DNA of 64,000 nucleotides from Candidatus Omnitrophota bacterium (GTDB lineage Bacteria > Omnitrophota > Gorgyraeia > Gorgyraeales > Gorgyraeaceae). The notes beneath the pieces are model-generated. The model saw only the letters and a list, made by a program, of their open reading frames with translations, was not told the origin of the DNA and ran no database searches. Position 1 is the stretch's first letter. Each line of letters starts with the position of its first letter. A program made the translations under genes and the position numbers. Positions 6,421 through 63,054 of the stretch are shown piece by piece. The stretch spans positions 3,838-67,837 of the forward strand of contig JBHPHU010000003.1 in assembly GCA_042571405.1 (NCBI GenBank). The letters run 5' to 3'.

Positions 6421-6480
6421 GCTAAAACTGCCCACTTTTTGGCTTGCCAAATTCCTGCCTATCTGTTAAAATTACCCCAT

Positions 6481-30360: not shown

Positions 30361-31368
30361 ATGCCAGATTTTACACAAAAATATGGGCAGGATATCAGAG
30401 AGATTAATGAAAAGGTCAAACAGGCTAGTCTTTTTGTTCAGCAGATCAATGCTGAACTTTCAAAGGTCATTGTGGGTCAAAAGGATGTAGTGGACAGACT
30501 CATGATAGCGCTTCTTGCGAATGGCCACATATTGATCGAAGGCGTGCCGGGCCTGGCAAAAACGCTTGCTGTAAAAACTCTTTCAAAATGTATCCAGACA
30601 AGATTTCAACGCCTTCAATTCACGCCTGACCTATTGCCGGCTGATTTAATCGGCACACTTGTTTATAATCCGAAAGACGGAAAATTTACTACCAAGAAAG
30701 GCCCTATATTTTCAAATCTGATCTTAGCTGATGAGATAAACAGGGCGCCCGCAAAGGTGCAGAGCGCGCTTTTAGAGGCAATGCAGGAACGCCAGATCAC
30801 AATAGGAGAGAATACCTTTAAATTAGATGATCCATTTCTTGTCCTGGCCACTCAAAATCCAATAGAGCAGGAAGGCACATACCCGCTTCCGGAAGCGCAG
30901 GTCGACAGGTTTATGCTCAAGATAAAGATGGACTACCCTAATAAAAAAGAAGAAAAAGAAATCATGGAGCGTATGGCAGGACATCAGCCGTCCGATGTAA
31001 AATCAGTTGTTTCTCCGCAGGATATTATAAAGGCCAGAGAGATAGTCAGCCAGGTCTATATAGACGATAAGGTGAAGGATTACATAGTAGATCTTGTCTA
31101 TGCCACAAGGAGACCTGAAGAATATAATCTGGACATAAAAAGCCTGATTTCATATGGCGCGTCTCCTCGAGCGTCTATATATTTAAATATAGCCAGCCGC
31201 GCGCATGCCTTTATCCGTGGCAGAGGTTATGTAACACCCGAAGATGTAAAGGAAATTGGCATGGATGTCCTGCGTCATCGCATTATAGTGACTTATGAAG
31301 CAGAAGCAGAAGAAATGACAAGCGAAGATATAGTAAAACGCGTGTTTGATGAGATAGAAGTACCATAA
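30361..31368 (+). CDS. moxR: MoxR-family AAA+ ATPase
   Basis: HILIEGVPGLAKTL Walker A, LLADEINRAPAKVQSALLEAMQE; first gene of Bat operon. Confidence 0.9.
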   Translation: MPDFTQKYGQDIREINEKVKQASLFVQQINAELSKVIVGQKDVVDRLMIALLANGHILIEGVPGLAKTLAVKTLSKCIQTRFQRLQFTPDLLPADLIGTLVYNPKDGKFTTKKGPIFSNLILADEINRAPAKVQSALLEAMQERQITIGENTFKLDDPFLVLATQNPIEQEGTYPLPEAQVDRFMLKIKMDYPNKKEEKEIMERMAGHQPSDVKSVVSPQDIIKAREIVSQVYIDDKVKDYIVDLVYATRRPEEYNLDIKSLISYGASPRASIYLNIASRAHAFIRGRGYVTPEDVKEIGMDVLRHRIIVTYEAEAEEMTSEDIVKRVFDEIEVP

Positions 31369-31370
31369 TA

Positions 31371-31453
31371 CGGGTAATGGGTAATGGGTAACGGGTAACG
31401 GAGATAAAATAATATTTTACTTTCGTATCCCGTTACCCGTATCCCGTATCCCG
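31371..31453. repeat. heptanucleotide tandem-repeat hairpin: (GGGTAAT/C)x4 ... (CCCGTAT/TAC)x4
   Basis: cgggtaatgggtaatgggtaacgggtaacgg-N22-cgtatcccgttacccgtatcccgtatcccg; arms imperfectly complementary; related heptad tracts inside CDSs at 868-897 and 36171-36205. Confidence 0.7.
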
Positions 31454-31459
31454 AAACAC

Positions 31460-32338
31460 ATGCTTCCCAAAGAAATCCTTAAAAAAATTCGGCAGATAGA
31501 GATTCGTACAGGCAGGCTAGTGAATGACGTATTTGCCGGTAAGTACGAGTCTGTCTTTAAGGGCCGCGGCATGGAATTCCACGAGGTGCGGGAATATGTG
31601 CCGGGTGACGACATCCGCTCTATTGACTGGAATGTGACGGCCCGCGCAGGCAATCCATACGTAAAAAAATTCGTGGAAGAAAGAGAGCTCACGGTTTTGC
31701 TCATGGCAGATCTGAGCTCATCAGGCCATTTTGGCACAAAAAACAAACTCAAAAAAGAGATAATGGCGGAGATAGGCGCGGTATTGGCATTCAGCGCTAT
31801 AAAAAACAATGATAAGGTAGGACTTTTGCTTTTTACAGACCATGTAGAAAAATTTATTATGCCTAAAAAGGGAAGAGCTCATGTCCTAAGGGTTATACGA
31901 GAATTATTGTACTATAAGCCCAAAGGCAAAAAGACCAATATCAACACTGCTATTGAATATCTGGGAAAGGTTTTAAAAAAGAAGGCCGTAATATTTCTAA
32001 TATCGGATTTTATAGATTCTAATTATGAAAAGCGCCTGAGGATCTTAAACAAGCGGCACGATATCGTAGCTATCCCGATCTCTGATCCGAGAGAAACAGT
32101 TCTTCCTGACGTGGGACTCATAGAATTCGAAGACGCGGAAACAGGCGAAATTCTTTTCATGGATACCGCAGACGCTTTGCTGAAAAAGGAATTCACAAAA
32201 AGAAAACACTCTTTTATAGAGGAACGCAACAGGATATTTAGATCCGTAGGAGTTGATTCCGTAGAGATATCTACAGACAAACCCTACATAAAACCCCTTA
32301 TGCTTTTTTTCAAGAAACGCGCCAAAAGATTTAGATGA
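31460..32338 (+). CDS. DUF58 (vWA-like) protein of the MoxR/Bat operon
   Basis: HEVREYVPGDDIRSIDWNVTAR... hallmark of DUF58. Confidence 0.85.
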   Translation: MLPKEILKKIRQIEIRTGRLVNDVFAGKYESVFKGRGMEFHEVREYVPGDDIRSIDWNVTARAGNPYVKKFVEERELTVLLMADLSSSGHFGTKNKLKKEIMAEIGAVLAFSAIKNNDKVGLLLFTDHVEKFIMPKKGRAHVLRVIRELLYYKPKGKKTNINTAIEYLGKVLKKKAVIFLISDFIDSNYEKRLRILNKRHDIVAIPISDPRETVLPDVGLIEFEDAETGEILFMDTADALLKKEFTKRKHSFIEERNRIFRSVGVDSVEISTDKPYIKPLMLFFKKRAKRFR

Positions 32339-32341
32339 GGA

Positions 32342-32830
32342 TTGGGAATGGATGATATAAGGCCTTTAAAAGGTCCGGTGGATATAGCAGGCGGATTGCA
32401 GATCTGGCCATTGATTATATTAATTGCGTTGATTATCGCGAGCGCGCTTATTTTTATTTACCTTAAGAAAAAAAGAAAAACAAAGGAAGAGGTCTTTGTG
32501 TCGCCCCGACCTCCTGAAGAAATTGCGATGGAAGCTCTAAGGGCTCTTCTGGAGATGAAATTGATCGAAAAGGGCCTGATAAAAGAATACTACATAAGAC
32601 TTTCAGACATTATCAGGACTTACATAGAGGCAAGATTTAAGATATTCGCCTTGGATCGTACAACATGGGAACTCTATCAGGAAATGCGGATAAAAAAAAT
32701 TGAAAGAAAAGAAACTGACAGGATAAGGGATTTTCTTGAGGACTGTGATATTGTAAAATTCGCAAAGTATATTCCATCGCGGAAAGAGATACAAGACGCA
32801 TATCTCAAGGCAGAGGAGATCGTAAAGTGA
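32342..32830 (+). CDS. Bat-operon small membrane protein (DUF4381-like)
   Basis: 162 aa, single TM (IWPLIILIALIIASALIFIYL) followed by KKKRK; conserved position between DUF58 and batA. Confidence 0.6.
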   Translation: MGMDDIRPLKGPVDIAGGLQIWPLIILIALIIASALIFIYLKKKRKTKEEVFVSPRPPEEIAMEALRALLEMKLIEKGLIKEYYIRLSDIIRTYIEARFKIFALDRTTWELYQEMRIKKIERKETDRIRDFLEDCDIVKFAKYIPSRKEIQDAYLKAEEIVK

Positions 32831-32831
32831 T

Positions 32832-33821
32832 ATGAGATTTGCCAGCCCTTTATTTTTAATACTACTTGGCATTATTCCTCTAATGGTCTGGGATTATTTC
32901 AGGCGCGGCAAAGACCGTGAAGCGAGTCTTTTATATTCCGATCTTTCCATTATAAAAGATATGCGGCCTGGCCTTCGCGTCAGATACAGGCGCATGCCAA
33001 TTATTTTGAAGATGGCTGCTATATTTATCTTTATCCTTGCCCTGGCAAGGCCTCAGGCAGGCCAGGTAGAAGAGGAGATTATTACAGAAGGCATTGATAT
33101 TATACTTACTCTTGATACCTCCAGCAGTATGAAGGCAGAGGATTTTAAACCGCAAAATAGATTGGGCGCAGCCAAAGAGGTAATGGGCAAATTTATTAAA
33201 TCAAGAAAGAATGACAGAATAGGCCTTGTGGTTTTTTCAGGAGTCAGTTTTACTCAATGCCCGCTTACTCTTGATTATGGGGTGCTTTTGGATCTATTGG
33301 ACAAGATAGAGATAGGCATGATAGAAGACGGCACTGCCATAGGTACCGCGATCGCGAATTCTGTTAACAGGCTCAGGGATTCCCAGGCCAAAAGCAAGAT
33401 CATTGTCCTGCTTACAGATGGCATCAATAATGCGGGAAAGATAGACCCTCAAACAGCGGCAAAAACAGCAAAGGCGCTCGGGGTAAAGATATATACTGTA
33501 GGCGCCGGCAAGCCCGGAGGGGCAATGTATCCTGTGGATCACCCTATATTTGGAAAAAGATACGTGCAGATGGATACAGAGATAGATGAAGCGCTTCTCA
33601 AAGAGATTGCCAAAGATACAGGCGCCATGTATTTCAGGGCAAAGGACGAAAAAGGCCTTGAGGAGATTTACGAGACTATAGGTAAGCTTGAGAAGACCGA
33701 GATAGAGACAAAAGAATACGCGAACTATACAGAACTTGCAGGCAGTTTTATCCTGCCGGGATTTATAATTTTCCTGGCAGGTATTACATTGGCAAATACT
33801 GTGTTTAGGAAGATACCTTAA
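32832..33821 (+). CDS. batA: BatA, vWA-domain aerotolerance protein
   Basis: N-terminal TM helices, vWA MIDAS DxSxS (ILTLDTSSSM), C-terminal TM. Confidence 0.85.
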   Translation: MRFASPLFLILLGIIPLMVWDYFRRGKDREASLLYSDLSIIKDMRPGLRVRYRRMPIILKMAAIFIFILALARPQAGQVEEEIITEGIDIILTLDTSSSMKAEDFKPQNRLGAAKEVMGKFIKSRKNDRIGLVVFSGVSFTQCPLTLDYGVLLDLLDKIEIGMIEDGTAIGTAIANSVNRLRDSQAKSKIIVLLTDGINNAGKIDPQTAAKTAKALGVKIYTVGAGKPGGAMYPVDHPIFGKRYVQMDTEIDEALLKEIAKDTGAMYFRAKDEKGLEEIYETIGKLEKTEIETKEYANYTELAGSFILPGFIIFLAGITLANTVFRKIP

Positions 33822-33824
33822 TAT

Positions 33825-34826
33825 ATGCACTGGGGCGCTCCGATATATCTTAATTTTCTTTTGTTGATTCCTGCGCTAGCGGTCTTTTTTATCCTTGTCT
33901 CAATAAGGAAAAAGAGGGCGCTTGAAGTATTCGGAGACAGGGATCTACTCCAGCGGCTTTCTGTTTCAAAGAGCGTAGCCAGGGAAAAGGCTTCCAGGAT
34001 TTTAATTCTTATAGCAGCATGTTTTTTAATAATTGCTCTTGCGCGGCCACAAATAGGCACCCGCCTTACTATGTCCAAGCGTCAGGGCGTAGATGTCATG
34101 ATAGCCATAGATGTATCTTCAAGTATGATGGCGCAGGATATAAAGCCGAATCGTTTGGAAAAGGCAAAGCTCGAAGTCGCCTCTTTAATAGATAAGTTAA
34201 AAGGCGACAGGGTGGGCATCCTCACATTTTCAGGAAAGAGTTTCATCCAGTGCCCGCTCACCCTTGACTATAATGCGGCAAAGATGTTTTTAGGGATTGT
34301 AGAGCCAGGCATGATACCCAGACCCGGAACTGCCATAGGCGATGCCATAGACAAGGCTGCTGAGGCATTTGTCAAGAAGCAGCGAAAGCACAAGGTACTG
34401 GTTTTGCTGACAGACGGAGAAGATCACGAGACCAATCCAATAAACTCAGCCAAAGAGGCAAAAAAACAAGGCATAGTCATATATACTATAGGCATAGGTA
34501 CCAGTAAAGGAGAGCCTATACCTTTGATTGGGAAATCCGGAAATGTCACAGGATATAAGAAGGACAATGCCGGTGAAGTAATTATGACAAAGCTGGACCA
34601 TGCAGCGCTTCAAAAGATAGCTCTTTTGACTGACGGGAAATACTATAATGCGAGCCCAGGGGAATTTGAGCTGGATAAGATTTACGGTGAGATTAGTAAG
34701 ATGCAGAAAAAGGAACTTTCAAGCAGGCTTTTTACCCAGTACGAGGACAGGTTCCAGTATTTTTTGGGCATAGCGCTTCTTCTTTTGTGTATTGAATTTG
34801 CCATGGGAGACAGAAAAAGGTTATGA
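33825..34826 (+). CDS. batB: BatB, vWA-domain aerotolerance protein
   Basis: MIAIDVSSSM MIDAS motif, paralog of BatA, TM helices at both ends. Confidence 0.85.
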   Translation: MHWGAPIYLNFLLLIPALAVFFILVSIRKKRALEVFGDRDLLQRLSVSKSVAREKASRILILIAACFLIIALARPQIGTRLTMSKRQGVDVMIAIDVSSSMMAQDIKPNRLEKAKLEVASLIDKLKGDRVGILTFSGKSFIQCPLTLDYNAAKMFLGIVEPGMIPRPGTAIGDAIDKAAEAFVKKQRKHKVLVLLTDGEDHETNPINSAKEAKKQGIVIYTIGIGTSKGEPIPLIGKSGNVTGYKKDNAGEVIMTKLDHAALQKIALLTDGKYYNASPGEFELDKIYGEISKMQKKELSSRLFTQYEDRFQYFLGIALLLLCIEFAMGDRKRL

Positions 34827-35611
34827 GGTCTATATTAATTATTTTAATATCTTTTTGCCTTGTAGGTTGGATATTTCAAAGCGATGCGGCAAGAAAAAAC
34901 AAAGAGGCAAATAGATTATACAGCGAAGACAAGATTGACGATGCTTTATCAAAATGGCGGGATGCTCAAGTAGATAGTCCTGAAAAAAAAGAGCTGCATT
35001 ATAATATAGGCGGCGCGCTACACGAGCAAAAAAACTATGAAGAGGCCTCCGGCGAATATGAAAAGGCATTGGATGCGAAAGATGATGAACTCAAAGCCAA
35101 GACGTATTATAATATTGGAAACACGTATTACAGAATGGGCAAGTTACCCGAAGCAATAGAAGGTTATGAAAAGTGCTTAGAAATAACGCCTGATGATGAA
35201 GATGCGAAGTATAATATAAAGTTTATCAAAGAAGAAATAGAAAAGCAGAAACAAGAACAGCAGAATCAGGGCGAGCAAAACGAAGAAAAACAAGAACAGC
35301 AGCAGGAAGACCAGCAAGACCAGCAAGAGCAAAGGTCACAACAGCAACAGGGTCAAGAGAAACAAGAGTCGCAAGCTGAAAGCCATAAGCCACAAGAAGA
35401 AGGTGAAGAAGAAGAGAAGCAAGCCTTGAAAGAAGAAGATAGCGAGCAACAGGAGAGCGACGAGCGGCAAGCGATGAGCGGTGAAAAAGAGATGTCAGAA
35501 GAAGATGCCATGCGACTGCTTGATGCATTAAAAGACGACGAAAAAGACCTGCAAAAGGAATTAAGGATCCAGCCAGCAGAAGGCAGGTATAGAGTAGACA
35601 AGGATTGGTAG
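34823..35611 (+). CDS. batC: BatC-like TPR protein with long Glu/Gln-rich low-complexity tail
   Basis: TPR repeats (YYNIGNTYYRMGKLPEAIEGYEKCLEITPDDEDAKYNI), then QEQQNQGEQNEEKQEQQQEDQQDQQEQ... tail. Confidence 0.75.
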   Translation: MRSILIILISFCLVGWIFQSDAARKNKEANRLYSEDKIDDALSKWRDAQVDSPEKKELHYNIGGALHEQKNYEEASGEYEKALDAKDDELKAKTYYNIGNTYYRMGKLPEAIEGYEKCLEITPDDEDAKYNIKFIKEEIEKQKQEQQNQGEQNEEKQEQQQEDQQDQQEQRSQQQQGQEKQESQAESHKPQEEGEEEEKQALKEEDSEQQESDERQAMSGEKEMSEEDAMRLLDALKDDEKDLQKELRIQPAEGRYRVDKDW

Positions 35612-35612
35612 T

Positions 35613-35712
35613 TCTTGACTACGCTTGAACAATATTGGACTCTGAGTGACGTCGGAGGGCTTCGAGTGAGCGAAGCAAGAGCTTACTAAATATTCTTCGA
35701 GCTTGTCGAGAA
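35613..35712. repeat. Family-B foldback repeat, copy 2
   Basis: gttcttgactacgcttgaacaatatt...aatattcttcgagcttgtcgagaa between batC and batD. Confidence 0.65.
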
Positions 35713-35722
35713 GAATGATATT

Positions 35723-37579
35723 ATGAAAATTAAGAAATTTTTATTTATAATTTTATACTTGTCCGTAGTTAGTGTTTGTTACGCTCAGGATATCTCTATA
35801 TCTGCCAATGTAGACAAGCAGGAGATAACTCTGGATGATCAGATCATTCTTAACATAGTTGTAAGCGGCAGTATTTCAAATATTCCACAACCAACAATTC
35901 CCAGCCTGGATGGGTTTACCGCGTATTCTTCAGGCAGGTCACAGAACGTCTCAATTATAAACGGTCAGATAACAAGTTCGGTTTCTTTCAATTATATGCT
36001 TGTTCCCAATGATGTCGGTAAATATGTCCTGGGCCCGTTCAGTATCGAGTATAAAAATAATACCTATTCAGCTGAAGCAATAGATGTAAAAGTATTGCCG
36101 CGCTCTGCCCAGCCAACAGCGCCGTCTTATTCCACCCCTGATTATAATGACGGGGAGCAGGGAGCGGCGAACGGGTCACGGGAAACGGGTCACGGGAAAC
36201 GGGAACTATTCATCGAGACCTACGTTGATAAACTCAGGGCTTATGTTAATGAGCAGATAACTTTGACGTTTGCTTTTTATCAGGCAGTAAATCTATTCGA
36301 AAACCCCGCATATAATCCGGCTTCGACCATAGGTTTCTGGACAGAAGATATGCCGCCCCAGAAAAAATACTACAAAATAATAAACGGCACAAAATATCTT
36401 GTCACAGAGATAAAGACAGCGCTTTTTGCGACAAGTCCCGGAGAATTTACCATTGGTTCAGCGAAGCTAGAGGCAAGCGTAGAAGACCTGGAAAGATTTT
36501 CCTCTCGCAGCCCTTTTGATATATTTGACAGGGATCCATTCAGTATGTTCAGGAGAGGAAAGCCTGTCATACTTACTACAGATCCAATAAATGTAGAGAT
36601 ATTGTCTTTACCGGAAGAGGGCAAACCCCTGAACTTTAAAGGTGATGTAGGCACTTTTGATATCGACGCAACTATAGATAAATACACGGTTGAGGAAAAC
36701 CAACCTGTAACGCTAAAAATTACAATAAAGGGAAAAGGGAATATAAAGACGATTTCCTCCCCTGTTATTCCGGAAAATCCGGATATAAAATTCTATGACT
36801 CAGGAAGCTCTGAAAATATATCCAAGGAAAACTATGTTGTCCAGGGAGAAAAGATATTCGAAAAGATGATCATACCGAAAAGTGAAGGCAAATTTACAAT
36901 AGGGCCTGTAGAATATTCTTATTTTGATCCTTCCCTGAAGAAGTATATTGAAATAAAAATAGACCCGATGACGATAAGCGCGACAGTATCAGAAGAAGCG
37001 TTACCAGCGACAATGCCTTTTTCAATGTCAGGGCTATCTAAAGAAGAAGTAAAGCTCTTAAAGAAAGATATATGTTATATCAAGACCCACCCTGCTAATT
37101 TCAGAAAAAAAGCGTCTTTTCTCTATGAGAATAAAGTATTTTATTTATTAAATATTCTACCGCTAGCGTTTCTTATATTCCTTTATATATACGAGCTCCA
37201 CAAGGAGAGATTGAGGACTGATATAGGATACGCGCGTTCGCGCAGGGCAAGAGGAGCTGCCTCAAAGAGGCTAAAGAAGGCGCAGCAGATTATGCTAAAA
37301 GATAGGGTGAAAGAGTTTTATGCCGAGATCTATAAAGCGGTAATAGAATATGTAGCGGATAAATTAAATATCCCGCACCCTTCCATTACAAAAGACCTTC
37401 TTGAAGAAAAATTAAAAGAAAAAGGATTCTCCGAGCAGCTTATAGAAGAACTAAAAGGCCTTTTCGATATTTGCGATATGGCCAGGTTTGCTTCAGTAAG
37501 CTTTACAAAACAGGACATGCATAAGTCGCTTGAAGAGGCAACTGATATAATTTCGGGACTCGAGAGAATAAGGCAATGA
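35723..37579 (+). CDS. batD: BatD oxygen-tolerance protein
   Basis: 618 aa, signal peptide, characteristic BatD N-terminal domain, C-terminal TM + cytoplasmic tail; contains in-frame heptad tract 36171-36205. Confidence 0.8.
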   Translation: MKIKKFLFIILYLSVVSVCYAQDISISANVDKQEITLDDQIILNIVVSGSISNIPQPTIPSLDGFTAYSSGRSQNVSIINGQITSSVSFNYMLVPNDVGKYVLGPFSIEYKNNTYSAEAIDVKVLPRSAQPTAPSYSTPDYNDGEQGAANGSRETGHGKRELFIETYVDKLRAYVNEQITLTFAFYQAVNLFENPAYNPASTIGFWTEDMPPQKKYYKIINGTKYLVTEIKTALFATSPGEFTIGSAKLEASVEDLERFSSRSPFDIFDRDPFSMFRRGKPVILTTDPINVEILSLPEEGKPLNFKGDVGTFDIDATIDKYTVEENQPVTLKITIKGKGNIKTISSPVIPENPDIKFYDSGSSENISKENYVVQGEKIFEKMIIPKSEGKFTIGPVEYSYFDPSLKKYIEIKIDPMTISATVSEEALPATMPFSMSGLSKEEVKLLKKDICYIKTHPANFRKKASFLYENKVFYLLNILPLAFLIFLYIYELHKERLRTDIGYARSRRARGAASKRLKKAQQIMLKDRVKEFYAEIYKAVIEYVADKLNIPHPSITKDLLEEKLKEKGFSEQLIEELKGLFDICDMARFASVSFTKQDMHKSLEEATDIISGLERIRQ

Positions 37580-38542: not shown

Positions 38543-41500
38543 GTGAACATGCAAGTAGAAGTAAAAGGCTCAAAAAAATTGAATATCTCTGAAAATTGTC
38601 TAAAGGTACTCGAGAGAAGATATCTGAAAAAAGACAAAGAGGGAAAAATTATAGAGACCCCGGAAGAGATGTTCGCCAGGGTCAGCCGCCACATAGCATC
38701 AGCAGATAAACTTTACGGCGCGACAGATGCTGATGTAAAAAAGACAGAAGATAATTTTTATAATATGATGAGTAGTTTTGAATTTATGCCGAATAGCCCC
38801 ACCCTAATGAACGCGGGAAAGGATCTTGCTCAGCTCTCAGCTTGCTTTGTTTTGCCCATAGAAGATTCCATGGAGTCTATATTTGAAGCAGTAAAGAATA
38901 CTGCTTTGATTCATCGGTCCGGTGGTGGAACAGGATTTAGCTTTTCAAGGCTGCGTCCTAAAAATAGCGTTGTTCGCTCTACCGGAGGCGTCTCAAGCGG
39001 TCCTGTTTCTTTTATGAAGGTATTTAATGCTGCAACTCAAGCTGTGAAGCAGGGAGGGTGTGTAGAAGAAAATACAATTATAGCTACAGAGAAAGGTCTT
39101 CTGCCGATCAAAGAACTTGGCAGCGCATCACCTGGATATTATGATAACCTATATCTCAAAGTTTGTAGTGATGATGGTTTAAAGATGGCAGATCAGTTTT
39201 ACAATAATGGTATTCAACCAGTGAAGACTATAATTACAAAGGAAGGTTATAAATTTACTGCAACCCTGAACCATAAGATCAGAGTTATTGACAGTGAAGG
39301 TAACTATGTATGGAGAGAATTAAAGGATGTAGAAGAGGGCGATTGGGTTGCTTTACAGATGGATACATTTACAGGGAAGAGACTTAAATTTGAGAAATTT
39401 ATCAGAGATTTTCATTTTAATGCTAAAACGTGTAGTTTGCCTTCTGAGATGGATATGGGTTTAGCGGAATTGATTGGTTACTACATAGGAGATGGCTGTT
39501 TCCATAAAGGAAAACTAATGTTGGCAGTCCCTCATGATTGTTTAGAGCTTAAGGACTATTTTGACAATCTCGTTAATAGAATCTTTAATATTAACAGTCG
39601 AGTCGAACAAAAAATAGATGATAAAAGCATTAATTTGATCTACCACAGTCAGATGCTTGTTGAATGGCTGAAATCTATAGGTGTTAATAAATTAGATTCA
39701 CTGCACGCATTTATACCGGAAGTGATTTTAAAAGGTAACAGAGAATGCGCTGAGGCTTTTGTGAAAGGTTTATTCGAGGCAGATGGGACGATTGATAAAC
39801 AAGGTTATAGCATTACTTTGACTTCTATTTCTCAAAAATTAATAGATCAATTACAAGTTCTATTGCTAAGTTTAGGCATACCTTCGCGTGTCCGGATTAA
39901 CGCAAATAGAGAATCTTCTCGTGGAAAAAATAAACTTTATATTTTAATGATTTCCACTCCAAAAGGATTGGAAACCTATAAAAAAAGAGTAGGTTTTTTA
40001 AGTAGAAAGAAGAAAGAAAGACTTAATCATATTATAAAAAGAGATGTTAGCTACAATGATATTATTCCAAATCAGTCAAAACAGTTTAGAGAATTTTATG
40101 AGAATCTGATATTAAAACCGAGAAATCAATTTTATAGGAAGGTTTACCATTATCTTGATGGTATAAGAGATGAAAGAAGTCTTACGCGTGCTAAGGCTGA
40201 AACTCTGGTGGAAGAATACGATTTTTTACAAGAGAGTTTTATTGAAGACATCCTTTCTAAAAATCAGTATTATGGCCGAGTAGAAAAGGTTAGCTTTTCG
40301 CATACACGCACCTTAGATTTAGTCGTACCTGATGGGCATACATACATTGCCAATGGTTTTGTCAGTCATAATACTCGTCGTGGCGCAAACATGGGAATGT
40401 TGCGTGTCGACCACTCTGATATCTTGGAATTTATTAAATGTAAAGAAGATGACAAAGAGATAACCAACTTCAATATTTCTATTTCAATTACGGAAGATTT
40501 TATGAATCGTGTTATAGAAGATAAAGAGTATGATTTGATAGATCCTCATACAAAAAAGACTACAGGAACCCTGAAAGCCAAAGAGGTTTTTGAACTTATT
40601 GTTGAAAAGGCATGGAAGAACGGAGAACCCGGAATTATTTTTATTGACAGGATGAATAAATTTAACCCTACACCAAAGCTAGGGCAGTATGAGTCGACTA
40701 ACCCATGTGGGGAGCAAATTCTGCTACCTTTTGAAAGCTGTAACTTAGGTAGTATAAATCTCTCAAAAGTAGTAGTCGAGAAAAACGGAAACAGCCAAGT
40801 AGATTGGGAAAAATTAAAAACTTTGGTGCATCATGGTGTGCATTTTCTAGATAATGTAATCGACAAGAATAAGTTTCCTTTAAAGGAAATAGAAGAGATG
40901 ACCAAGAGGAATAGAAAGATTGGTCTTGGAGTAATGGGTTTGGCAGATATGTTGATCAAGCTCGAGATACCTTATAATAGTGATAAGGCAATAGAGTTAG
41001 CGGAAAAGGTCATGAGTTTTATAAGCGAAACAGCCATAGATAAATCTCGAGACTCAGTACGAACAAGAGGTTCGTTCCCTTCATTTAATGACAGTGTGTT
41101 TGCAGAGAAGGGCGAAGAGAAAATGCGGAATGCTACCTTGACAACTATTGCGCCCACAGGCACCATTTCAATTATATCCAATGCCTCGAGCGGCATAGAG
41201 CCTCTGTTTGCGATCTCGTATTGCAGGAATGTCATGGATAACGACAAGCTGATCGAGGTAAATCCATTATTCGAAGAGATCGCGAAAAAAGAAGGGTTTT
41301 ATTCCAGAAAGTTAATGGAAGAGATAGCTGATAAAGGTTCTGTGAGGGACATAAAAGAGGTGCCTGAAAAATACAGGAAGATATTTGTTACTTCGCACGA
41401 TATCGCGCCTATCTGGCACATAAGGATGCAGGCGGCATTCCAGAGGCATACAGACAACGCGGTATCAAAGACAGTAAATTTTCACAATGAAGCTTCCAGG

Positions 41501-42154
41501 GATGATGTGAAAGAGGTTTACATGCTTGCGTATAAATTGGGTTGCAAGGGTGTAACTATTTACAGGGATAAAAGCAGGGAGGAACAGGTGTTGAATATAA
41601 GCTCAAAAAAGACAAAAACAGAACCAGCCAAAGATACTGCTACAAAAGAGAAACACGTTGCGCCGCGTCCAAGACCTGCAGTGACAACAGGTACAACTAC
41701 AAAGGTCAATACAGGCTGTGGCAACCTTTATATTACTATAAACGTAGATGATAATGCCATGCCTTTTGAGGTATTTATCCAGATGGGAAAGGCAGGCGGC
41801 TGTGCCGCGAGTCAGCTTGAAGCAGTGGGAAGACTTGTGTCTCTGGCACTTCGTTCCGGTGTGGAAAATAAGAAGATCGTGTCCCAGCTAAGGGGTATAC
41901 GCTGCCCGTCACCGTCATGGGAAAAAGGCGGGAGGATCTTCTCATGCGCTGATGCTATTGCCAGGGTACTGGAACTTAGGCTGGGCAATGGAAAGATGCA
42001 TCACAAAGAAGAAGAACTGGAAAAACATTCTCCTCATACAATGATAGAAGATAAGCTGGGCAATGTCGTAGGCGTGTGCCCTGATTGCGGCGCCGCATTA
42101 CGCCATGAAGAGGGCTGTGTAGTCTGCCGCTCATGTGGTTATTCAAAGTGTTAA
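38543..42154 (+). CDS. nrdJ: adenosylcobalamin-dependent (class II) ribonucleotide reductase NrdJ, interrupted by a 438-aa LAGLIDADG intein; C-terminal Zn-ribbon
   Basis: Extein motifs [27 protein letters not shown]-terminal CPDCG...CVVCRSCG; extein 765 aa. Confidence 0.85.
39059..40372 (+). mobile_element. intein with LAGLIDADG homing-endonuclease domain inserted in nrdJ
   Basis: Begins Cys (..VKQGG|CVEENTII..), LAGLIDADG blocks [14 protein letters not shown] and [12 protein letters not shown], ends ...IANGFVSHN|T; flanking exteins reconstitute conserved RNR ...[13 protein letters not shown]. Confidence 0.8.
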
Positions 42155-54423: not shown

Positions 54424-56325
54424 ATGCAAAAAAGATTTATTAAGCTCATATCATTTGTTACGATAGTGTTTTTATATATTACTGCAGCATATCCTGCCGA
54501 GACTGAAAAATTTCCAAATATACATAAGTTAAGGCCAGCGATAGGTGGATATGAAGACATAGAGAGTCTTTATTATTCTAGTTTCAGGAAAGATCTTATC
54601 AATGGTAAGACTTTTCGCATATTTGAAGTATTTGAGACAAAATCAGGCAACCTTACCAAAGATACAGCAGTAAAATTAATTGATACGGCGCATAAATTAT
54701 ATCTTTCGCGTAGAAAGGATTTAAGAGGAAAAACAGAATTTAAGGACCTATTGGAAAAAATGGAATATATATTGCATAGCTTTATATATGGGGCCATTGC
54801 TTATGAGTTAAATCAGCGCCCTGAAGGAAATAAGGCGCTAAAAGAGATCTTTTTTTTAACTGAAAAAAGGTTAGCAGAGCCTATAATAAAAGAATATTTT
54901 GATGAATTAGATAGCATCCCGAACGAAAAAGACAAGCCTGAAAAAATAATAGAGTATCTTATTGGTAATGACGAGTATAGCATTAAAGGGTTTTTTGAAA
55001 TAGCGCTCTTAAATGCAGAATTTGTTTCTAAGAATGCTATTGCAAATCTAGAGAGCATGCTGGGCAATGACAAGAAGAACGCAATTAATAAGACGGTGAA
55101 TTCTATCATTGAATCGGTAGAAGAGATTCAAGGTTTAGAAAAACTAGAGAGAGACTCTAAAATAACTATTCAAGACGACTTAAAGAATTTTGTGGATGAC
55201 GCTATATTAAATTTTAAGCAACTCAATCATGAAGAAGTATCTAAAGCTATTCTCAATATAGACAATAAACTTGCCAGTCGTGACTTAACAGGAGACTTTC
55301 GATATTCAGATCTATATGATGAAAAGAACACATCTCTTTCATTTTTCAGATTATTGCCTGCGTTGGCGGCAGAGGCATATATAATAGATTCAACTGATAA
55401 TGAATATATAGAGTTCTTATCTGTCTTAGAAAATTCAGGCATGAAAGAACGCTACAGGAACAAGGCATTGGAAGCCCTATTGGCTTTTCAGGCATTAAAG
55501 TTAAAACAGAACAATAAACCATGCGCAGCTGTTAGGATCAGGCTTGGGTTGGGAGAGTTATGGAGCTATCTTAACAACGGCTATGTTTATAATATCAGGC
55601 ATATACCCCCTTTGCCACCCATAGTCGAGAAATTAGATAAGTTTATAGAGAGACTTTCTGTTTTAAGAGAACTGAAAGAAATACGTGGAATACCTAATGG
55701 TGTTAAAAGCAAAAAACTCATATCAGGTTACGCGCGCAAGTTAAAAAACCTGGGCATAAATATAACAGAAATTTTATACAAGAACGAGAAACAGCTTATA
55801 AGTGAGAAAAGCAGGATATTGAAACAAGTCAATTTAATAAAATTGGAAATGATAAGTAATTTCCTGCAGGATAAGTACGTAGAGACTTTGCAGTCTATGA
55901 AAGAAATGACAGAGCTTGTTAAAGCAGACATAAAAGCTGCTATGTACGTAGCTACCCCTTCAGATATTAAAAAATTATTACCGGTCTTATTGGCCCAAAG
56001 CATTATAGTAAATTCAACAGTAAAGGAGTACCGGGATTTTGTAGATACTTTGAATGTTTTTGGATATTCTAAGAATGAGGCTATGGGGGAGTTGAGAAAA
56101 TTAGTGGTTACCCAGGCATTGAAGAGCAATAATCTTCTTACTGATCCTGCCGCCGAGTTTTTAAGAATTCCAGCAATAATGTTACGTGACCTTTTAGAGG
56201 ACGAATATATCTCTATAATCTCCAATATACCTATTTCACTGGATGCTCCAAGAATAGACTTTGAACAATTAAAGGCGCACAAGATAATAAGAAACAGTAA
56301 AAACTCTACTGCATATTTCCTTTGA
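54424..56325 (+). CDS. leader-cluster protein 5: hypothetical protein with N-terminal leader + KLRPAIGGY motif
   Basis: MQKRFIKLISFVTIVFLYITAAYPAETEKFPNIHKLRPAIGGYED...; otherwise alpha-helical, no recognised domain. Confidence 0.45.
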   Translation: MQKRFIKLISFVTIVFLYITAAYPAETEKFPNIHKLRPAIGGYEDIESLYYSSFRKDLINGKTFRIFEVFETKSGNLTKDTAVKLIDTAHKLYLSRRKDLRGKTEFKDLLEKMEYILHSFIYGAIAYELNQRPEGNKALKEIFFLTEKRLAEPIIKEYFDELDSIPNEKDKPEKIIEYLIGNDEYSIKGFFEIALLNAEFVSKNAIANLESMLGNDKKNAINKTVNSIIESVEEIQGLEKLERDSKITIQDDLKNFVDDAILNFKQLNHEEVSKAILNIDNKLASRDLTGDFRYSDLYDEKNTSLSFFRLLPALAAEAYIIDSTDNEYIEFLSVLENSGMKERYRNKALEALLAFQALKLKQNNKPCAAVRIRLGLGELWSYLNNGYVYNIRHIPPLPPIVEKLDKFIERLSVLRELKEIRGIPNGVKSKKLISGYARKLKNLGINITEILYKNEKQLISEKSRILKQVNLIKLEMISNFLQDKYVETLQSMKEMTELVKADIKAAMYVATPSDIKKLLPVLLAQSIIVNSTVKEYRDFVDTLNVFGYSKNEAMGELRKLVVTQALKSNNLLTDPAAEFLRIPAIMLRDLLEDEYISIISNIPISLDAPRIDFEQLKAHKIIRNSKNSTAYFL

Positions 56326-58694: not shown

Positions 58695-58720
58695 CGACTC
58701 TAACGTGAATTGATTGGATG

Positions 58721-58751
58721 CCCTGTCCGCCTTAGGCGGACAGGGCTTTTT
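58721..58751 (+). terminator. rho-independent terminator CCCTGTCCGCC-TTAG-GCGGACAGGG + CTTTTTG
   Basis: 11-bp GC stem, 4-nt loop, T-run; followed by TTGACA promoter (58753) for next gene. Confidence 0.8.
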
Positions 58752-58789
58752 GTTGACACGATAATAAGACTTCTATACAATAAAACGTA

Positions 58790-61700
58790 ATGAGAGAAGA
58801 TAAAGGCATTGCTTTAATCCTGGTTGTAAGTGTTTTGGCTGTGGCTGGCATAATGGCAGTGTCTTTTGCCTTTACCATGCGGCTGGAACTAAAGTCCGCG
58901 AATAATTATTTCGAGGCCACAAGGGCGTCTTATCTGGCAGAGGCAGGTATCAGTTATGCGCAGTCGATCCTAAAAGAAGACGAGAGAGGAATCGATAGCT
59001 TTGAAGATAAATGGCATACTATTTTTTCAGGAGCGGATGTTGATAATGACGGAGATGAAGAGCTGGATTCAAAATGGATATATGTCTACAATGACCTGGA
59101 TGAGCCGGTAGGCCGTTACGCGGTTTTGGTAAGGGACCAGACAAGTCTTTTAAACATAAATATTGCTACAAAACATAATATCTCTCCGCTGAAGACCACG
59201 GAAGGATGGACGCCGTACGAACTGGACCTGCAGAAATTCCTTGCCTCTTTTGAGATGGATGATTCTCAAAAAGCCTACGAGGAGATACTAGACTTTAGAT
59301 ATGGTTTTGATGGTGAGCCAGGCGCCTCAGGCGTAGACGATAATCAAAACCAGAGGGTTCTTTCCTCAGACGGCATAGACAATAATGCCGACGGCATTAT
59401 TGATGAGGCAGGCGAGGGCATTGACGAGCCAATGGAATTTACAGCGGATGTTCCTTTTGGTGACGATAGCGCATTCCAGACGCCGTTCGAGCTAGCTAAG
59501 ATAAGTTCTGTTCCAAAGGATGTCTTCAAAAAGATATACGCCTATATAACTTCATATTCTGTTGACAAAAATCTTGATGTGGAAGGCCGCATAAGAGAGA
59601 ATATAAATTTTATGGATGCCGCGACACTGGCAATACTTCTGGAGGATGCAGGCGTAAGTGATCCATTCCAGAAGGCAGTCAATATAATGGACGCGTGCGA
59701 CGAGGATTTTAGCCAGAGTATTATAACAAAGCTATACAACAGGATAGCAGCTGTTAATAGAGGCCCGGTGGGTGACTGGACCTGGAAGAGCGGGCATTAT
59801 GAGAGTGATATAAGTAATGGAAAGTCACTTACTATCTCATGGATTAATGTGCCGGAGGGAGAATATTACATAGGTGTCTTTGGCGTGGAGGATGAATTAG
59901 TAGGGGACGTTACGATTAATAATATGACCCAAGCTTCAGTAAAACATGGAGAGATCTTGAGGTTCGGCGCTATTGCGTTTGAGAACAAGACATTGAACTT
60001 GAAGGTTACAGGCGCGCAGGGGGACAAGACATGTTATTTTTCGCACATAGAATTATATCCAAGGCTTGGCCAGGAAGATTTTAGTTCTGTTGAGATAAGG
60101 GGCGTGGAAGGCATAAGGATAAATGAGATAATGGTAAAGCCGATTCTGACCAGGGCTGTTTTTGAAGGACAGGATCCTGGCGGTGACTGGTCGTGGCAGG
60201 GCAGCTCTTGCTATAATGATTACCCTAATGGCGGCAAGTCAGGCGAAGGGTCTTGGAAGTGGGAAGATATTCCCGACGGAGATTATTACGTCCGCCTGTT
60301 TGCGGACGGGTCAGGCCAGTATGTAGGGGATGTAGAGATAAACGGCGCGCATTCAAGGGATATGGTAGACGGAAATCTGTTTGGCGGAGGAAAAACAGTA
60401 ACTGTTTCAGGTAAGAAGCTTATCGTCAGGATACAGAATAATCGTCCCTCTGGTTCAACATCTTTTAGGTCAATCGAATTGAGTCAGGAGCCGGATGGAG
60501 AATATATAGAGTTAGTAAATCTTACTCCCAGAGAGGTAAATCTGGGCGGATGGAGTGTTGAGGGTCCCAGCAAAGAAAGCTGGCCTGCTGCTATTCCTCT
60601 TGGGACTGTTATTGGGCCTGATGAGCATCTTGCGCTTTGCGTTGACAAAGATGATTCACAGGCAGGTATCAATAATAATGATATATCGTTCATATCTATA
60701 TGGGGACAAGAGAGATCACAGGAGCTTCATTTTTTAAAGGCAGTAACGCCTGAGTCAGATCTGCTTTCCAATGAGAGTGAGCCAGGAGGAAATATCATTA
60801 CCCTCAAAGACTCTATGGGGCATATTGTTGATCAAGTAGAGTATTTTGTAAACGGTATCAGTGAGATGAAAAGCCTGGAGCGTTCAGACCCGAGCTATGT
60901 CTTGGATTCAAATTCTAACGGAGTGCCGGATAACTGGTATTTGTCCGGGGCAGAAAATGGCGCAACACCAGGCCTGCCCAATAATAATGATGGCATGAAA
61001 GAGGAGATAGTAGAGGGAGACGTGGTAGTAGATACCATAGAACATGATATTACGGAAGTAGAAGTGAAAAATAAAAATTTTTCTTCGGTTGGCGAGCTTG
61101 CGTTTACGTCTCTGGGCAGCGAGGAATGGAAGAGTATAGCGTTCGAGGATGTTTCTAAAGTAGCTGACAGGTTAACCGTGTTTGGTATAAGACTGGAGGC
61201 AGAAGGCCATATTGTCTCTGGTGAAGATGGCGGATGGGGTATTGTGCAGAGAGCGTCTCCTTTTACAGATCATTTTGAAAGCGGCGGCCTGGATGAGATC
61301 GGCACGTGGCGCTGGGAAGAAAAAGACGGGATCAAGGACGGTTATTATACATTAAGGATATTTGGTCAGGAGGAAGAGGAAATAGCAGTGTCTTTGCGCC
61401 TGGCAGATGACACATGGACGAGCTTTACGCCGCCTCTTAGTCCGGGCCCTGACGGAAGCATACTTTTTGGAAGCATAGAGGTCGGAACAGAGAGCGATAT
61501 ATCAGCTCCTAAGGGTATACTGGAACTAAAGGTAAAGAATGTTTCCAAGACCGCTGCCGCGCATTTTGATTTTATAAGATTAGACCCTGTGAATTCTATT
61601 GATGGAAAGATAAATATAAATACCGCGTCGAAAAAAGTGCTCAGCGTATTGCCTGGTATGGATGAGAGCGCAGCGGATAAGATTATATCTAACAGGGTGT

Positions 61701-61915
61701 ACGGGAATAGGAATGGTTTGCGGCTGGGTATAGGCGATCTGATCTCAGGTGACGCGCTTGGCTCTGAAGACGCGGAGAAAAGAGAAAAATTCAAGCAGAT
61801 CTCAAACCTTGTGACAGTACACTCTGACATCTACAGGATCATAGTGACCGGCCAGACATTGGATAATGGCAAGGTACTGGCAGAGAAGAAGATATGGGCA
61901 GTGTTTGAGAGGTAA
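58790..61915 (+). CDS. giant GspK-like minor pseudopilin (T2SS/T4P) with three internal ~70-aa repeats and C-terminal tandem HhH domains
   Basis: N-terminus MREDKG|IALILVVSVLAVAGIMAVSFAF (prepilin-like, no Glu+5 as in GspK); C-terminal INTASKKVLSVLPGMDESAADKIISNR HhH; central repeats GDWTW...EGEYYIGVFG / GDWSWQG...DGDYYVRLFADG / GTWRWEE...DGYYTLRIFGQ. Confidence 0.55.
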   Translation: MREDKGIALILVVSVLAVAGIMAVSFAFTMRLELKSANNYFEATRASYLAEAGISYAQSILKEDERGIDSFEDKWHTIFSGADVDNDGDEELDSKWIYVYNDLDEPVGRYAVLVRDQTSLLNINIATKHNISPLKTTEGWTPYELDLQKFLASFEMDDSQKAYEEILDFRYGFDGEPGASGVDDNQNQRVLSSDGIDNNADGIIDEAGEGIDEPMEFTADVPFGDDSAFQTPFELAKISSVPKDVFKKIYAYITSYSVDKNLDVEGRIRENINFMDAATLAILLEDAGVSDPFQKAVNIMDACDEDFSQSIITKLYNRIAAVNRGPVGDWTWKSGHYESDISNGKSLTISWINVPEGEYYIGVFGVEDELVGDVTINNMTQASVKHGEILRFGAIAFENKTLNLKVTGAQGDKTCYFSHIELYPRLGQEDFSSVEIRGVEGIRINEIMVKPILTRAVFEGQDPGGDWSWQGSSCYNDYPNGGKSGEGSWKWEDIPDGDYYVRLFADGSGQYVGDVEINGAHSRDMVDGNLFGGGKTVTVSGKKLIVRIQNNRPSGSTSFRSIELSQEPDGEYIELVNLTPREVNLGGWSVEGPSKESWPAAIPLGTVIGPDEHLALCVDKDDSQAGINNNDISFISIWGQERSQELHFLKAVTPESDLLSNESEPGGNIITLKDSMGHIVDQVEYFVNGISEMKSLERSDPSYVLDSNSNGVPDNWYLSGAENGATPGLPNNNDGMKEEIVEGDVVVDTIEHDITEVEVKNKNFSSVGELAFTSLGSEEWKSIAFEDVSKVADRLTVFGIRLEAEGHIVSGEDGGWGIVQRASPFTDHFESGGLDEIGTWRWEEKDGIKDGYYTLRIFGQEEEEIAVSLRLADDTWTSFTPPLSPGPDGSILFGSIEVGTESDISAPKGILELKVKNVSKTAAAHFDFIRLDPVNSIDGKININTASKKVLSVLPGMDESAADKIISNRVYGNRNGLRLGIGDLISGDALGSEDAEKREKFKQISNLVTVHSDIYRIIVTGQTLDNGKVLAEKKIWAVFER

Positions 61916-62031: not shown

Positions 62032-63054
62032 ATGAGCGTAAAGAAAGCCATAAGCATAAGTGTGTGTATTTTCTTGTTTGCATCAATACAGGGTAAGGCC
62101 CTTGCTTCCTCTCATACGCATACTAAAAACAGCAATTCCACCTTACGCCCTCAGTTGGCTTTTAAGGCTGAAAATGACCCAAGAAACAGAACTTTAGAAC
62201 AAGATCTCGTTGAGCTTATAGCAGGCTTTGATCTGAAGGATGGCTTCACTAAGGGTGCGAATTTTGTCTTACTAAAATATAGCCACTATGCTGCAATATC
62301 ATATAAGGTTACGAAAAATACTGTTTATCTTTTTTTTATATATAAAGATCTTTCTGAGCAAACCATTTTAAAACTAGATAAAAAATATATAAATAAATCG
62401 CAAGCATATTCTGAAGTCAAATTTATACAGACCAAAGAATACGCTGAAGTGCCTGGAGCGAGCAGGTCTATAATTATGCCTAGGACATTTATTGTTGATG
62501 GTGAATTCGATGAATCACCCACAGGGAAGACAATCAATATGATTCTTGATCCTCTAGAATTATGGAAGTATCTTTCCTCACCCAATTTTGTAGAAAGCAT
62601 AAATCTTAGTGCCGAAAATAGAATATATCTTCTAGTAGGTAATACCTATCATAGTGTAGACATGGCTACACTTAAAGCCTTGGAAAAATTAGAAGTTATT
62701 AACATAATTTATGCCGGGGATAAAGGAGAAAAAATTGTAGGATTTGTCATGTCTCTTCAGAGTACAGATGTTCAGGATTATGTGGTGGATAGCATTATAG
62801 AAGCGTTAAAAGCTGAGAACCGATACTTAGCTACAGATGACTTAGGCGAAGATAGTATTATTCAGCTAAAAAAAATAATAAAATATACTTTAAATTTAGA
62901 CGCAGGTTCCGAGGCTAATTTGGAACTTGGCATAAGTGATGAAATCTATAGCCAGACATATTACCCTTCTTTGAATAGCTGGCTCATTCTTCGTGGTCTT
63001 GGTGCCTCGCTAACTAAGGAAGCACAGATCCCTGAGACACTCTCAGATCTTTAA
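62032..63054 (+). CDS. secreted hypothetical protein with signal peptide + TLRPQLAF motif
   Basis: MSVKKAISISVCIFLFASIQGKALASSHTHTKNSNSTLRPQLAFKAE...; same LRPxxxF motif as leader-cluster proteins. Confidence 0.45.
   Translation: MSVKKAISISVCIFLFASIQGKALASSHTHTKNSNSTLRPQLAFKAENDPRNRTLEQDLVELIAGFDLKDGFTKGANFVLLKYSHYAAISYKVTKNTVYLFFIYKDLSEQTILKLDKKYINKSQAYSEVKFIQTKEYAEVPGASRSIIMPRTFIVDGEFDESPTGKTINMILDPLELWKYLSSPNFVESINLSAENRIYLLVGNTYHSVDMATLKALEKLEVINIIYAGDKGEKIVGFVMSLQSTDVQDYVVDSIIEALKAENRYLATDDLGEDSIIQLKKIIKYTLNLDAGSEANLELGISDEIYSQTYYPSLNSWLILRGLGASLTKEAQIPETLSDL

Follow-up and report, generated by a model that had tools for sequence, protein, structure and literature searches.

A giant GspK-like minor pseudopilin with nested jelly-roll and lamin-tail domains, a candidate tip adhesin of the Omnitrophota

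Tip pilins of the GspK type are minor pseudopilins that lack the glutamate at position +5 (Glu+5), an absence that is the signature of GspK. GspK and XcpX (PDB 3CI0, 5VTM, 6UTU, 9A1F) are proteins of approximately 300-330 aa with a prepilin-like N-terminus and a pilin β-sheet that is broken by an α-domain bearing helix-hairpin-helix (HhH) motifs, and their genes are placed after gspI and gspJ. The present analysis concerns a 1041-aa relative of these proteins, hereafter giant K, encoded in a DNA stretch of 64,000 nucleotides (the window) from Candidatus Omnitrophota bacterium (assembly GCA_042571405.1, contig JBHPHU010000003.1, positions 3,838 to 67,837 of the forward strand). Giant K shares with GspK/XcpX the N-terminus without Glu+5, the broken β-sheet and, in its orthologues, the gene slot. 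On the other hand, it holds approximately 630 additional aa, with four extra domains, within the α-domain. Its identity as a minor pseudopilin of the GspK/PilX position is supported by sequence, fold and synteny together.

The nearest described protein with such an insert is the GspK-like competence tip pilin ComZ from Thermus thermophilus, which carries an inserted β-solenoid receptor domain and binds DNA (PMC6561018). Both proteins combine a GspK-like scaffold with a large β-rich insert that is argued to fit the filament tip only. However, the single β-solenoid of ComZ is placed between the last two β-strands, whereas the jelly rolls and the lamin-tail domain (LTD) of giant K are placed within the α-domain; the ligand of ComZ is DNA, whereas the inserted modules of giant K are acidic. 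The modular pilins PilB (vWA) and PilC (lectin module) of Streptococcus sanguinis and CofB of enterotoxigenic Escherichia coli are tip adhesins (PMC8179133). A modular pilin in the sense of Raynaud et al. (2021) combines a pilin module with at least one domain that is not filament-specific, and giant K combines it with an LTD and three jelly rolls, inserted and not appended. The modular type IV pilins therefore resemble giant K in having binding modules grafted on a pilin module, with a tip adhesin as the predicted role. They differ from it in that their modules are C-terminal and joined by a linker, whereas those of giant K are nested in a K-type pilin of a diderm with secretins. A functional analogue is the PilY1/PilC adhesin at the tip of type IVa pili with the minor pilins PilVWX/FimU, where a binding head of approximately 115 kDa is likewise presented by a tip complex that contains K/PilX. 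PilY1 is a β-propeller protein of its own and no pilin, whereas the head and the pilin anchor of giant K form one polypeptide. By analogy, giant K may unite in function a GspK/PilX tip pilin and a PilY1-like head. GspK tip pilins and the concept of modular pilins were known already; the arrangement R1, LTD with R2 inside it, X, R3 described below appears to be new. No description of this architecture was found in the literature searches made or in two Omnitrophota papers (PMC10066038; preprint 10.64898/2026.06.07.730766), neither of which mentions GspK or this protein family.

The gene is one uninterrupted open reading frame (ORF) of 1041 codons plus stop on the forward strand, as the first-pass annotation of the sequence had read it. 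An identical protein is on record as ACFL2G_01090, a hypothetical protein of a Candidatus Omnitrophota metagenome-assembled genome. The N-terminus consists of the leader MREDKG followed by IALILVVSVLAVAGIMAVSFAF, with Gly at position -1, approximately 22 hydrophobic residues and Leu at +5 in place of Glu. This is the prepilin-type N-terminus of GspK (short leader, Gly at -1, approximately 20 hydrophobic residues and no Glu+5). The cleavage-type site between G and IALIL, already noticed in the first pass, is conserved: G6, A8 and L9 are each at least 90% conserved among 37 aligned homologues. The prediction program PilFind would be an unfair test of this N-terminus, since giant K is of the GspK type without Glu+5 and the GspK-like ComZ is not recognized by PilFind either (PMC6561018).

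Profile searches agree with this assignment at both ends of the chain. The NCBIfam model T2SS_GspK (NF037980; T2SS, type II secretion system) matches giant K in two stretches with an E-value of 9e-16 and 58.3 bits, the best one running from aa 5-261 against profile positions 2-212, and Pfam PilX_N matches aa 5-54 weakly. The C-terminal HhH region is present, as first proposed. Pfam HHH_3 is above its cut-off at aa 940-971 (27.7 vs 27.0 bits). Pfam T2SSK (PF03934) matches aa 941-969 with 22.6 bits in the full protein, against a gathering score of 24.2, and reaches 24.8 bits on the C-terminal 105 aa alone; many orthologues carry a precomputed PF03934 match. The comEA (HhH)2 model TIGR01259 matches aa 940-996 weakly (16.7 vs 152 bits). 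A further HhH-like hairpin is placed at aa ~230-259 by a weak ComEA HhH alignment. Part 1 of the α-domain also contains a conserved Asp-rich stretch, DGIDNNADGIIDEAGEGIDEP (aa ~172-230), whose sequence suggests a Ca-binding loop.

The AlphaFold2 model of the full chain, built from the homologue alignment, has a pLDDT (predicted local distance difference test) of 88.6 and a pTM (predicted template-modelling score) of 0.85, and presents the whole chain as one body that is confidently predicted to be packed. Modelling had been proposed in the first pass as a check, and it resolves the middle of the protein into jelly rolls plus an LTD. In the model, a helix (aa 3-63) is followed by strands (80-116), helices (147-303), a long β-rich middle, helices (948-1004) and strands (1014-1040), so that the pilin β-sheet is broken by an α-helical domain as in the GspK fold. 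Foldseek against the PDB returns the XcpX chains 9a1f_T and 6utu_C with probability 1.00 and target TM (template-modelling) scores of 0.43 and 0.41. At the sequence level, phmmer of giant K against the PDB sequences returns nothing, and the family profile gives weak HhH-level matches only, XcpX included (E 0.036).

The threefold size of the protein had been attributed to a central insertion, and the approximately 630 inserted aa indeed sit in the α-domain. Their order is R1, LTD with R2 in its first loop, X and R3. The full chain runs from the N-terminal part of the pilin and part 1 of the α-domain through R1, LTD strand A, R2, the rest of the LTD, X and R3 to the (HhH)2 region and the last pilin strands. 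The nesting is three levels deep, with a jelly roll in an LTD, the LTD in the α-domain and the α-domain in the pilin fold. Neither the LTD nor the nesting of R2 in it had been seen in the first pass. The LTD (PF00932, aa 568-685) scores 35.6 bits, E 1.3e-8, above the Pfam cut-off of 34.3 bits, and Foldseek pairs it with the Ig domain of lamin A/C (3gef) with probability 1.00 and a target TM of 0.60. It differs from the lamin-tail Ig domain in being split by an inserted domain. Strand A, GIRINEIMVKP (aa 441-451), lies 129 residues ahead of the second strand EYIELVN (aa 571), whereas in relatives with an unsplit LTD the first strand lies approximately 18 aa ahead of E[YF]IEL. R2 is therefore nested in the LTD.

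The three R domains are homologous. Profile-profile comparison of the sub-alignments gives a probability of 99.9% for R1 and R2 (E 4.5e-37), 97.2% for R1 and R3 (E 3.9e-11) and 97.6% for R2 and R3 (E 4.8e-12), and the controls against the LTD and linker X stay below 1.5%. The homology is visible to this comparison only, and self-BLASTP of giant K shows no internal repeats. The first-pass annotation was right in counting three related modules and wrong about their length, which is approximately 105-120 aa and not 70. The modules are also not tandem: the first LTD strand lies between R1 and R2, and R3 follows approximately 250 aa further on. As to the proposed common motif GDW[ST]W, the 'GTWRW' of R3 pairs with the second WxW of R1/R2 and not with 'GDWSW'.

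A β-sandwich similar to carbohydrate-binding modules (CBM) had been suggested for these repeats, and the suggestion stands for the predicted fold. The model of R2 alone has a pLDDT of 96.6, and its nearest PDB folds are nearly all CBM6, CBM35, CBM36 or collagen-binding/CUB jelly rolls. The best neighbours (2cdp/2cdo of CBM6, 8j3x, CBM35) show a TM of approximately 0.5, a root-mean-square deviation of approximately 5.4 Å and E-values from 2e-3 to 0.1; the full chain also retrieves the CBM6 modules 2cdp/2cdo, with a target TM of approximately 0.6. Sequence membership does not follow: Pfam at E≤10 yields noise only, and no CBM, on R1, R2, R3, X and part 1 of the α-domain. The R domains thus resemble CBM6/CBM35 in their modelled fold and define a jelly-roll domain family absent from Pfam. 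Among 7825 ORFs from the window and from related loci with a total of 1.36 Mb, a hidden Markov model of this family detects the domain in giant K proteins only. A profile search of a 5.8-billion-protein set returned one short fragment, a result that has no bearing on R domains in other types of protein. Three copies are present in most loci and two in the more distant orthologues, which lack R1. Because R1 and R2 are the closest pair and R1 is missing from the two-copy orthologues, the sequences fit an origin of R1 as a later duplicate of R2.

The genomic context of giant K was read in orthologous loci (labelled L001, L004 and so on) that continue beyond the end of the window, which stops ahead of the PilM/N, GspM-like and secretin genes of the conserved cluster. 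In L004, L001 and approximately 20 more loci of the window clade, an MS-channel-like gene comes first, then giant K, the Ig-like gene and a MerR-like gene; these are followed by the PilM-PilN fusion, an Amuc_1100/T2SSM_b-like gene, a gene of approximately 190 aa, a TPR-secretin and the second secretin. The cluster downstream of giant K (small MerR/HTH_17-like, PilM-PilN, Amuc_1100/T2SSM_b and the two secretins) is found in L001-L007 and approximately 40 others, and the N-terminus of its first secretin carries a long extension rich in TPR (850-1900 aa). It points to a filament machine of the Planctomycetes-Verrucomicrobia-Chlamydiae (PVC) type, related to the Akkermansia Amuc_1098-1102 cluster; Amuc_1100 stands for the Akkermansia 'pili-like' protein family.

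At 34-47% identity, the orthologue is preceded by gspF, an I-like N_methyl gene and T2SSJ, in this order, and followed by the Ig-like gene. The complete series F, I, J, K, Ig, (MerR), PilMN, M, secretins occurs in L003, L005-L007, L037, L040-L044, L047-L057 and L059-L060, with the variant J, F, I, K in L041/L043. The most distant orthologues (26-31% identity; L061 and L064-L070) show F..G, G, I, J, K, and L071 shows G, G, G, I, J, K. The operon of L068 begins with a PilT-like ATPase, GspE/PilB and F, continues with two regulators (a response regulator of the sigma-54 type and a histidine kinase) and ends with two T2SSG genes, GspH, I, J and giant K. Altogether, I- and/or J-like genes flank K upstream in approximately 33 orthologous loci. 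These gene orders place giant K in the K/PilX slot of a hybrid filament system between T2SS and type IV pilus (T4P). They rule out an isolated gene without secretion context. The GspK/T4P-type identity proposed in the first pass is borne out by the NCBIfam match, the XcpX hits and this gspF/I/J synteny.

The family is conserved within the phylum. The 69 further homologues, nearly all with 1027-1103 aa, range from 89% down to 34% identity, and every named member of the 70 is assigned to Omnitrophota/Omnitrophica. A scan of the GTDB species genomes found 74 loci, approximately 60 of them full-length. Orthologues of full length, with approximately 1035 aa, are present in more than 60 species-level genomes. 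Given these homologues and loci, the gene is real, conserved and under selection. Some orthologues are automatically annotated as 'GspK', 'lamin tail domain-containing' or 'helix-hairpin-helix domain-containing'.

A wider circle of relatives was obtained by an exhaustive HMMER search of 1.84 billion cluster representatives (50%-identity library): 1086 of them match at E≤1e-3, some over part of their length only, while the stricter limit of E≤1e-30 leaves 98. The relatives, from approximately 600 to 1700 aa long, share a frame of N-terminal pilin part, α-domain part 1, variable insert, (X), HhH and C-terminal strands; some are without R1 or R3 and many carry other inserts. Eight such relatives were compared with the profiles, and all eight match GspK below threshold, while six of the eight show a remote match to Verru_Chthon_A. 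This frame is common to giant K, the Verru_Chthon cassette protein A (TIGR02600) and further enlarged GspK-like proteins from the PVC group and related bacteria, whereas only the Omnitrophota subfamily has the insert R1, LTD with R2, X, R3. The N-terminal helices are related (E 3e-8, aa 6-67). Membership of giant K in TIGR02600 was rejected: the match reaches 32 bits against a cut-off of 332 for a model of approximately 1300 aa, and it covers the N-terminal 62 residues only. Because the relatives keep the frame and differ in what is inserted there, the GspK α-domain is a recurrent site for the grafting of modules, and the R1, LTD with R2, X, R3 arrangement is the Omnitrophota version of an enlarged GspK.

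The evidence makes it probable, at a moderate level of confidence, that giant K is the K-position minor pseudopilin of an Omnitrophota T2SS/T4P-hybrid filament and that it displays a ligand-binding head at the tip. The components of the machine would be GspE/F, pilins of the T2SSG type, minor pilins similar to H/I/J, a GspL-like fusion of PilM and PilN, a protein similar to GspM/Amuc_1100, and two secretins. By the precedents of GspK, ComZ and the modular pilins, a prepilin peptidase would cleave giant K between G6 and I7, and the mature protein would prime the filament with its I- and J-type partners and remain at the tip, where alone such a bulky head could be accommodated. The strongly acidic and probably Ca-loaded head, made up of an Ig-like LTD and three jelly rolls similar to CBM6/35, would face outward. 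Because CBM are its nearest folds, and because of its acidity and probable Ca load, the head would most likely bind a glycan or some other polymer of the envelope, carried by a host cell, a prey cell or a particle. The dynamics of the filament would then turn binding into attachment or pulling; one distant locus, L068, includes a PilT-like ATPase. An adhesive role is suggested by analogy, and a part in host attachment has been proposed for the type-4a pili of Omnitrophota (PMC10066038). A bolder version is tentative: the family would be a dedicated host- or prey-recognition adhesin, a pseudopilin with a rigid four-domain head on a retractile filament, and the gain and loss of its modules would track the host range. 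The modules do vary, with two or three R domains and with other inserts in the relatives of 600-1700 aa.

Several observations weigh against the tip-displayed head. The score of 58.3 bits remains below the equivalog cut-off of 130 bits for NF037980; insertion and divergence depress it. A tip of approximately 115 kDa would need to pass through the secretin. The CBM likeness of the R domains is one of fold only, without a Pfam CBM match. No prepilin peptidase was seen, with only the 64-kb window of the source genome to read. In the window clade, the gene stands apart from F/I/J, with its own promoter-like site after a terminator; upstream of the window gene are gpmA and the MS-channel-like gene in place of I and J. 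Judging from the synteny, the F-I-J block has moved away in this clade and giant K has gained a promoter-like site of its own. Giant K has the structure, the N-terminus and the syntenic position of GspK, falls short of the equivalog score and is a member of the LTD family.

The same genes can be read as a true T2SS. The filament would then be periplasmic, and giant K would be a cargo-docking cap whose head pushes bound substrate through the secretin, with the adjacent Ig-like protein of 500-600 aa or large surface proteins as candidate substrates. This reading is unlikely, but it draws on a series of T2SS-like genes (T2SSG, GspH, T2SSJ, T2SSK, GspL-like PilM/N, T2SSM_b-like and secretins), on the adjacency of K and the Ig-like gene in nearly all loci and on Omnitrophota giant proteins that are reported to be flanked by T2SS/T4P genes (preprint 10.64898/2026.06.07.730766). 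However, the PilT-like ATPase and the PilS/R-like regulators of the distant L068 operon indicate a dynamic pilus, binding modules on K are not required for the canonical function of a T2SS, and a head of 630 aa may be sterically difficult to hold in a secretin vestibule.

LTD also occur in bacterial extracellular nucleases, and giant K could be imagined as the tip protein of a competence pilus and as its receptor for DNA, in which (HhH)2 and LTD would catch extracellular DNA. ComZ is the precedent (PMC6561018), HHH_3 is above its cut-off and ComEA-family models match, one relative (P0116) passing the ComEA HhH-repeat cut-off. Charge divides the protein in this respect. The C-terminal HhH and strands form its only basic segment (pI ~9, family median 9.2), whereas every inserted module is strongly acidic (net -19 for the LTD) and the whole protein has a pI of 4.4 and a net charge of -85. 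Moreover, HhH motifs are a generic feature of GspK, the first hairpin is G-M-D (family consensus G-I-D) and not G-I-G, and the loci of the window clade showed no linkage to comEC or dprA. DNA capture is accordingly improbable. Least credible of all is a protein outside any filament, bitopic in the inner membrane or periplasmic, on a GspK-derived anchor, with another envelope role such as scaffold or cell-wall binding. The curated GspK threshold is not reached, and in the window clade the gene stands apart from F/I/J and appears to be monocistronic. Nevertheless, the complete GspK scaffold, the terminal β-strands and the conserved G(-1) are kept over 34-100% identity, and the PilMN, M and secretin block is linked to the gene in all clades.

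Table 1. Features of the giant K gene and its surroundings in the window (positions of the window; aa, residues of giant K).
Feature	Position	Strand	Basis or detail
MS_channel_1st_1 membrane protein, 224 aa	57962..58636	+	Pfam, synteny
Strong intrinsic-terminator-like hairpin, end of upstream MS-channel gene	58720..58746	+	12-bp stem, 10 GC pairs, T-run
Promoter-like site TTGACA-17-TACAAT	58753..58781	+	11/12 consensus match only; ATG 9 nt downstream of site end
Giant GspK-like minor pseudopilin, whole ORF	58790..61915	+	Pfam, NCBIfam, homologues, AlphaFold2 model, Foldseek
Leader MREDKG, putative prepilin-peptidase site between G and I, hydrophobic α1, no Glu+5 (aa 1-63)	58790..58978	+	Sequence, conservation, model helix 3-63
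First β-strands of pilin fold (aa 64-125)	58979..59164	+	AlphaFold2 model, NCBIfam
GspK α-domain part 1 (aa 126-307)	59165..59710	+	GspK profile positions to 212 align; net charge -25
R1 β-jelly-roll (aa 308-430; GDWTW...GEYYIGVFG...VGDVTING)	59711..60079	+	Profile-profile, R hidden Markov model, model
LTD first strand (aa 431-457; GVEGIRINEIMVKP)	60080..60160	+	Motif spacing vs relatives
R2 β-jelly-roll nested in LTD (aa 458-568)	60161..60493	+	Profile-profile, motif spacing, stand-alone model
Rest of lamin-tail (LTD) Ig-like domain (aa 569-730)	60494..60979	+	Pfam PF00932, Foldseek 3gef
Linker X, β-hairpin and two helices (aa 731-811)	60980..61222	+	Model; conserved across wider enlarged-GspK clade
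R3, divergent third β-jelly-roll (aa 812-936)	61223..61597	+	Profile-profile, R hidden Markov model
α-domain part 2, (HhH)2 of ComEA/T2SSK type, last two long β-strands (aa 937-1041)	61598..61912	+	Pfam, NCBIfam, model
340-aa ORF between giant K and Ig-like partner	62032..63054	+	Absent here in L004
Ig-like partner gene, 5' part, 292 aa, runs off window	63123..64000	+	Ig_Rha78A_N; orthologues 500-600 aa

The G+C content around the giant K gene is 43-45% (Table 1). No Shine-Dalgarno sequence is visible ahead of its ATG in the window, unlike in the 89% identical L004 orthologue, which has AGGAG ahead of the start codon. Since the promoter-like site also ends close to the ATG, the transcript may be near-leaderless, or even leaderless. 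The MS-channel gene is syntenic with giant K in the window-clade loci that reach far enough upstream, with one exception (L009).

Pfam scans of approximately 50 larger window ORFs show no recognizable secretion genes, and the window genes are housekeeping or miscellaneous (ribonucleotide reductase with intein, dCTP deaminase, Bat/MoxR operon, NAD synthase, gpmA). The first-pass statement that no other secretion or pilus gene is present in the window holds for such recognizable families; it misses the truncated ORF at the window end, which is the conserved partner of giant K. This ORF shares 84% identity with the gene of 591 aa that comes directly after giant K in L004 (L004 7891-9666). The Ig-like partner consists of a hydrophobic anchor, a Gly/Ser-rich segment with the repeats 'S..Y...NSVG.P.G' and 'SYKIYSG', and Ig_Rha78A_N/Big_13 domains. 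It may be a cargo, a partner at the tip or an accessory protein of the pilus. Its similarity to PamT, a pilus protein of the Candidate Phyla Radiation (NCBIfam), covers the signal and the Gly/Ser-rich N-terminus with 27.7 against 240 bits. Set against the Pam pilus preprint, this match is weak, and a chaperone-usher-like Pam system was rejected. The space between K and the partner appears to be a local insertion hot-spot: besides the window, insertions are found in L013 (13174-14907, 578 aa) and L025 (13261-14568, 436 aa, HTH-like N-terminus), and the three are mutually unrelated.

The ORF inserted at this spot in the window is also one of five within approximately 15 kb (47724-49043, 49382-52741, 52768-54402, 54424-56325 and 62032-63054) with a similar N-terminus. 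A basic residue and a hydrophobic segment like K-I-I-S-L-I-x-x-Q-V-F-L..G..Y-P are followed 5-15 aa later by an 'LRP' motif, usually with x3-F/G after it. The downstream parts differ, with one glucan-phosphorylase-like DUF3417 N-terminal region, one histidine-kinase domain (HATPase_c) and three without Pfam or NCBIfam match. A strict regular expression for the leader finds three of the five and none of 1339 ORFs of related loci; the shared leader could be a lineage-specific signal or sorting motif. Elsewhere in the window, a ribonucleotide reductase large subunit of 1203 aa (38543-42154) is split at aa ~217-610 by an intein that includes a LAGLIDADG homing endonuclease, and it ends in a TSCPD domain. 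No Pfam model matches at E≤1e-3 in an ORF of 1095 aa with a TTG start (6439-9726), and the gene after it encodes a membrane protein of the DsbD_2 kind. The aerotolerance operon of the Bat/MoxR type (30361-37579) is complete and comprises MoxR AAA_3, DUF58, a 162-aa gene, two BatA-VWA genes, TPR and BatD.

Omnitrophota are widespread, uncultured and ultra-small bacteria, thought to live attached to other cells or to prey on them, and to our knowledge no adhesin has so far been named for their pili. The giant K family, with its adhesin-like anatomy, its linkage to filament and secretin genes and its approximately 60 full-length loci, provides a concrete and testable candidate for a tip adhesin. 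It also presents the GspK α-domain as an insertion hot-spot, gives a clean example of triple nesting and adds with the R domains a new jelly-roll family outside Pfam, found so far in these proteins only in the 7825-ORF search. Giant K is a good candidate for the means by which Omnitrophota would grip other cells or particles.

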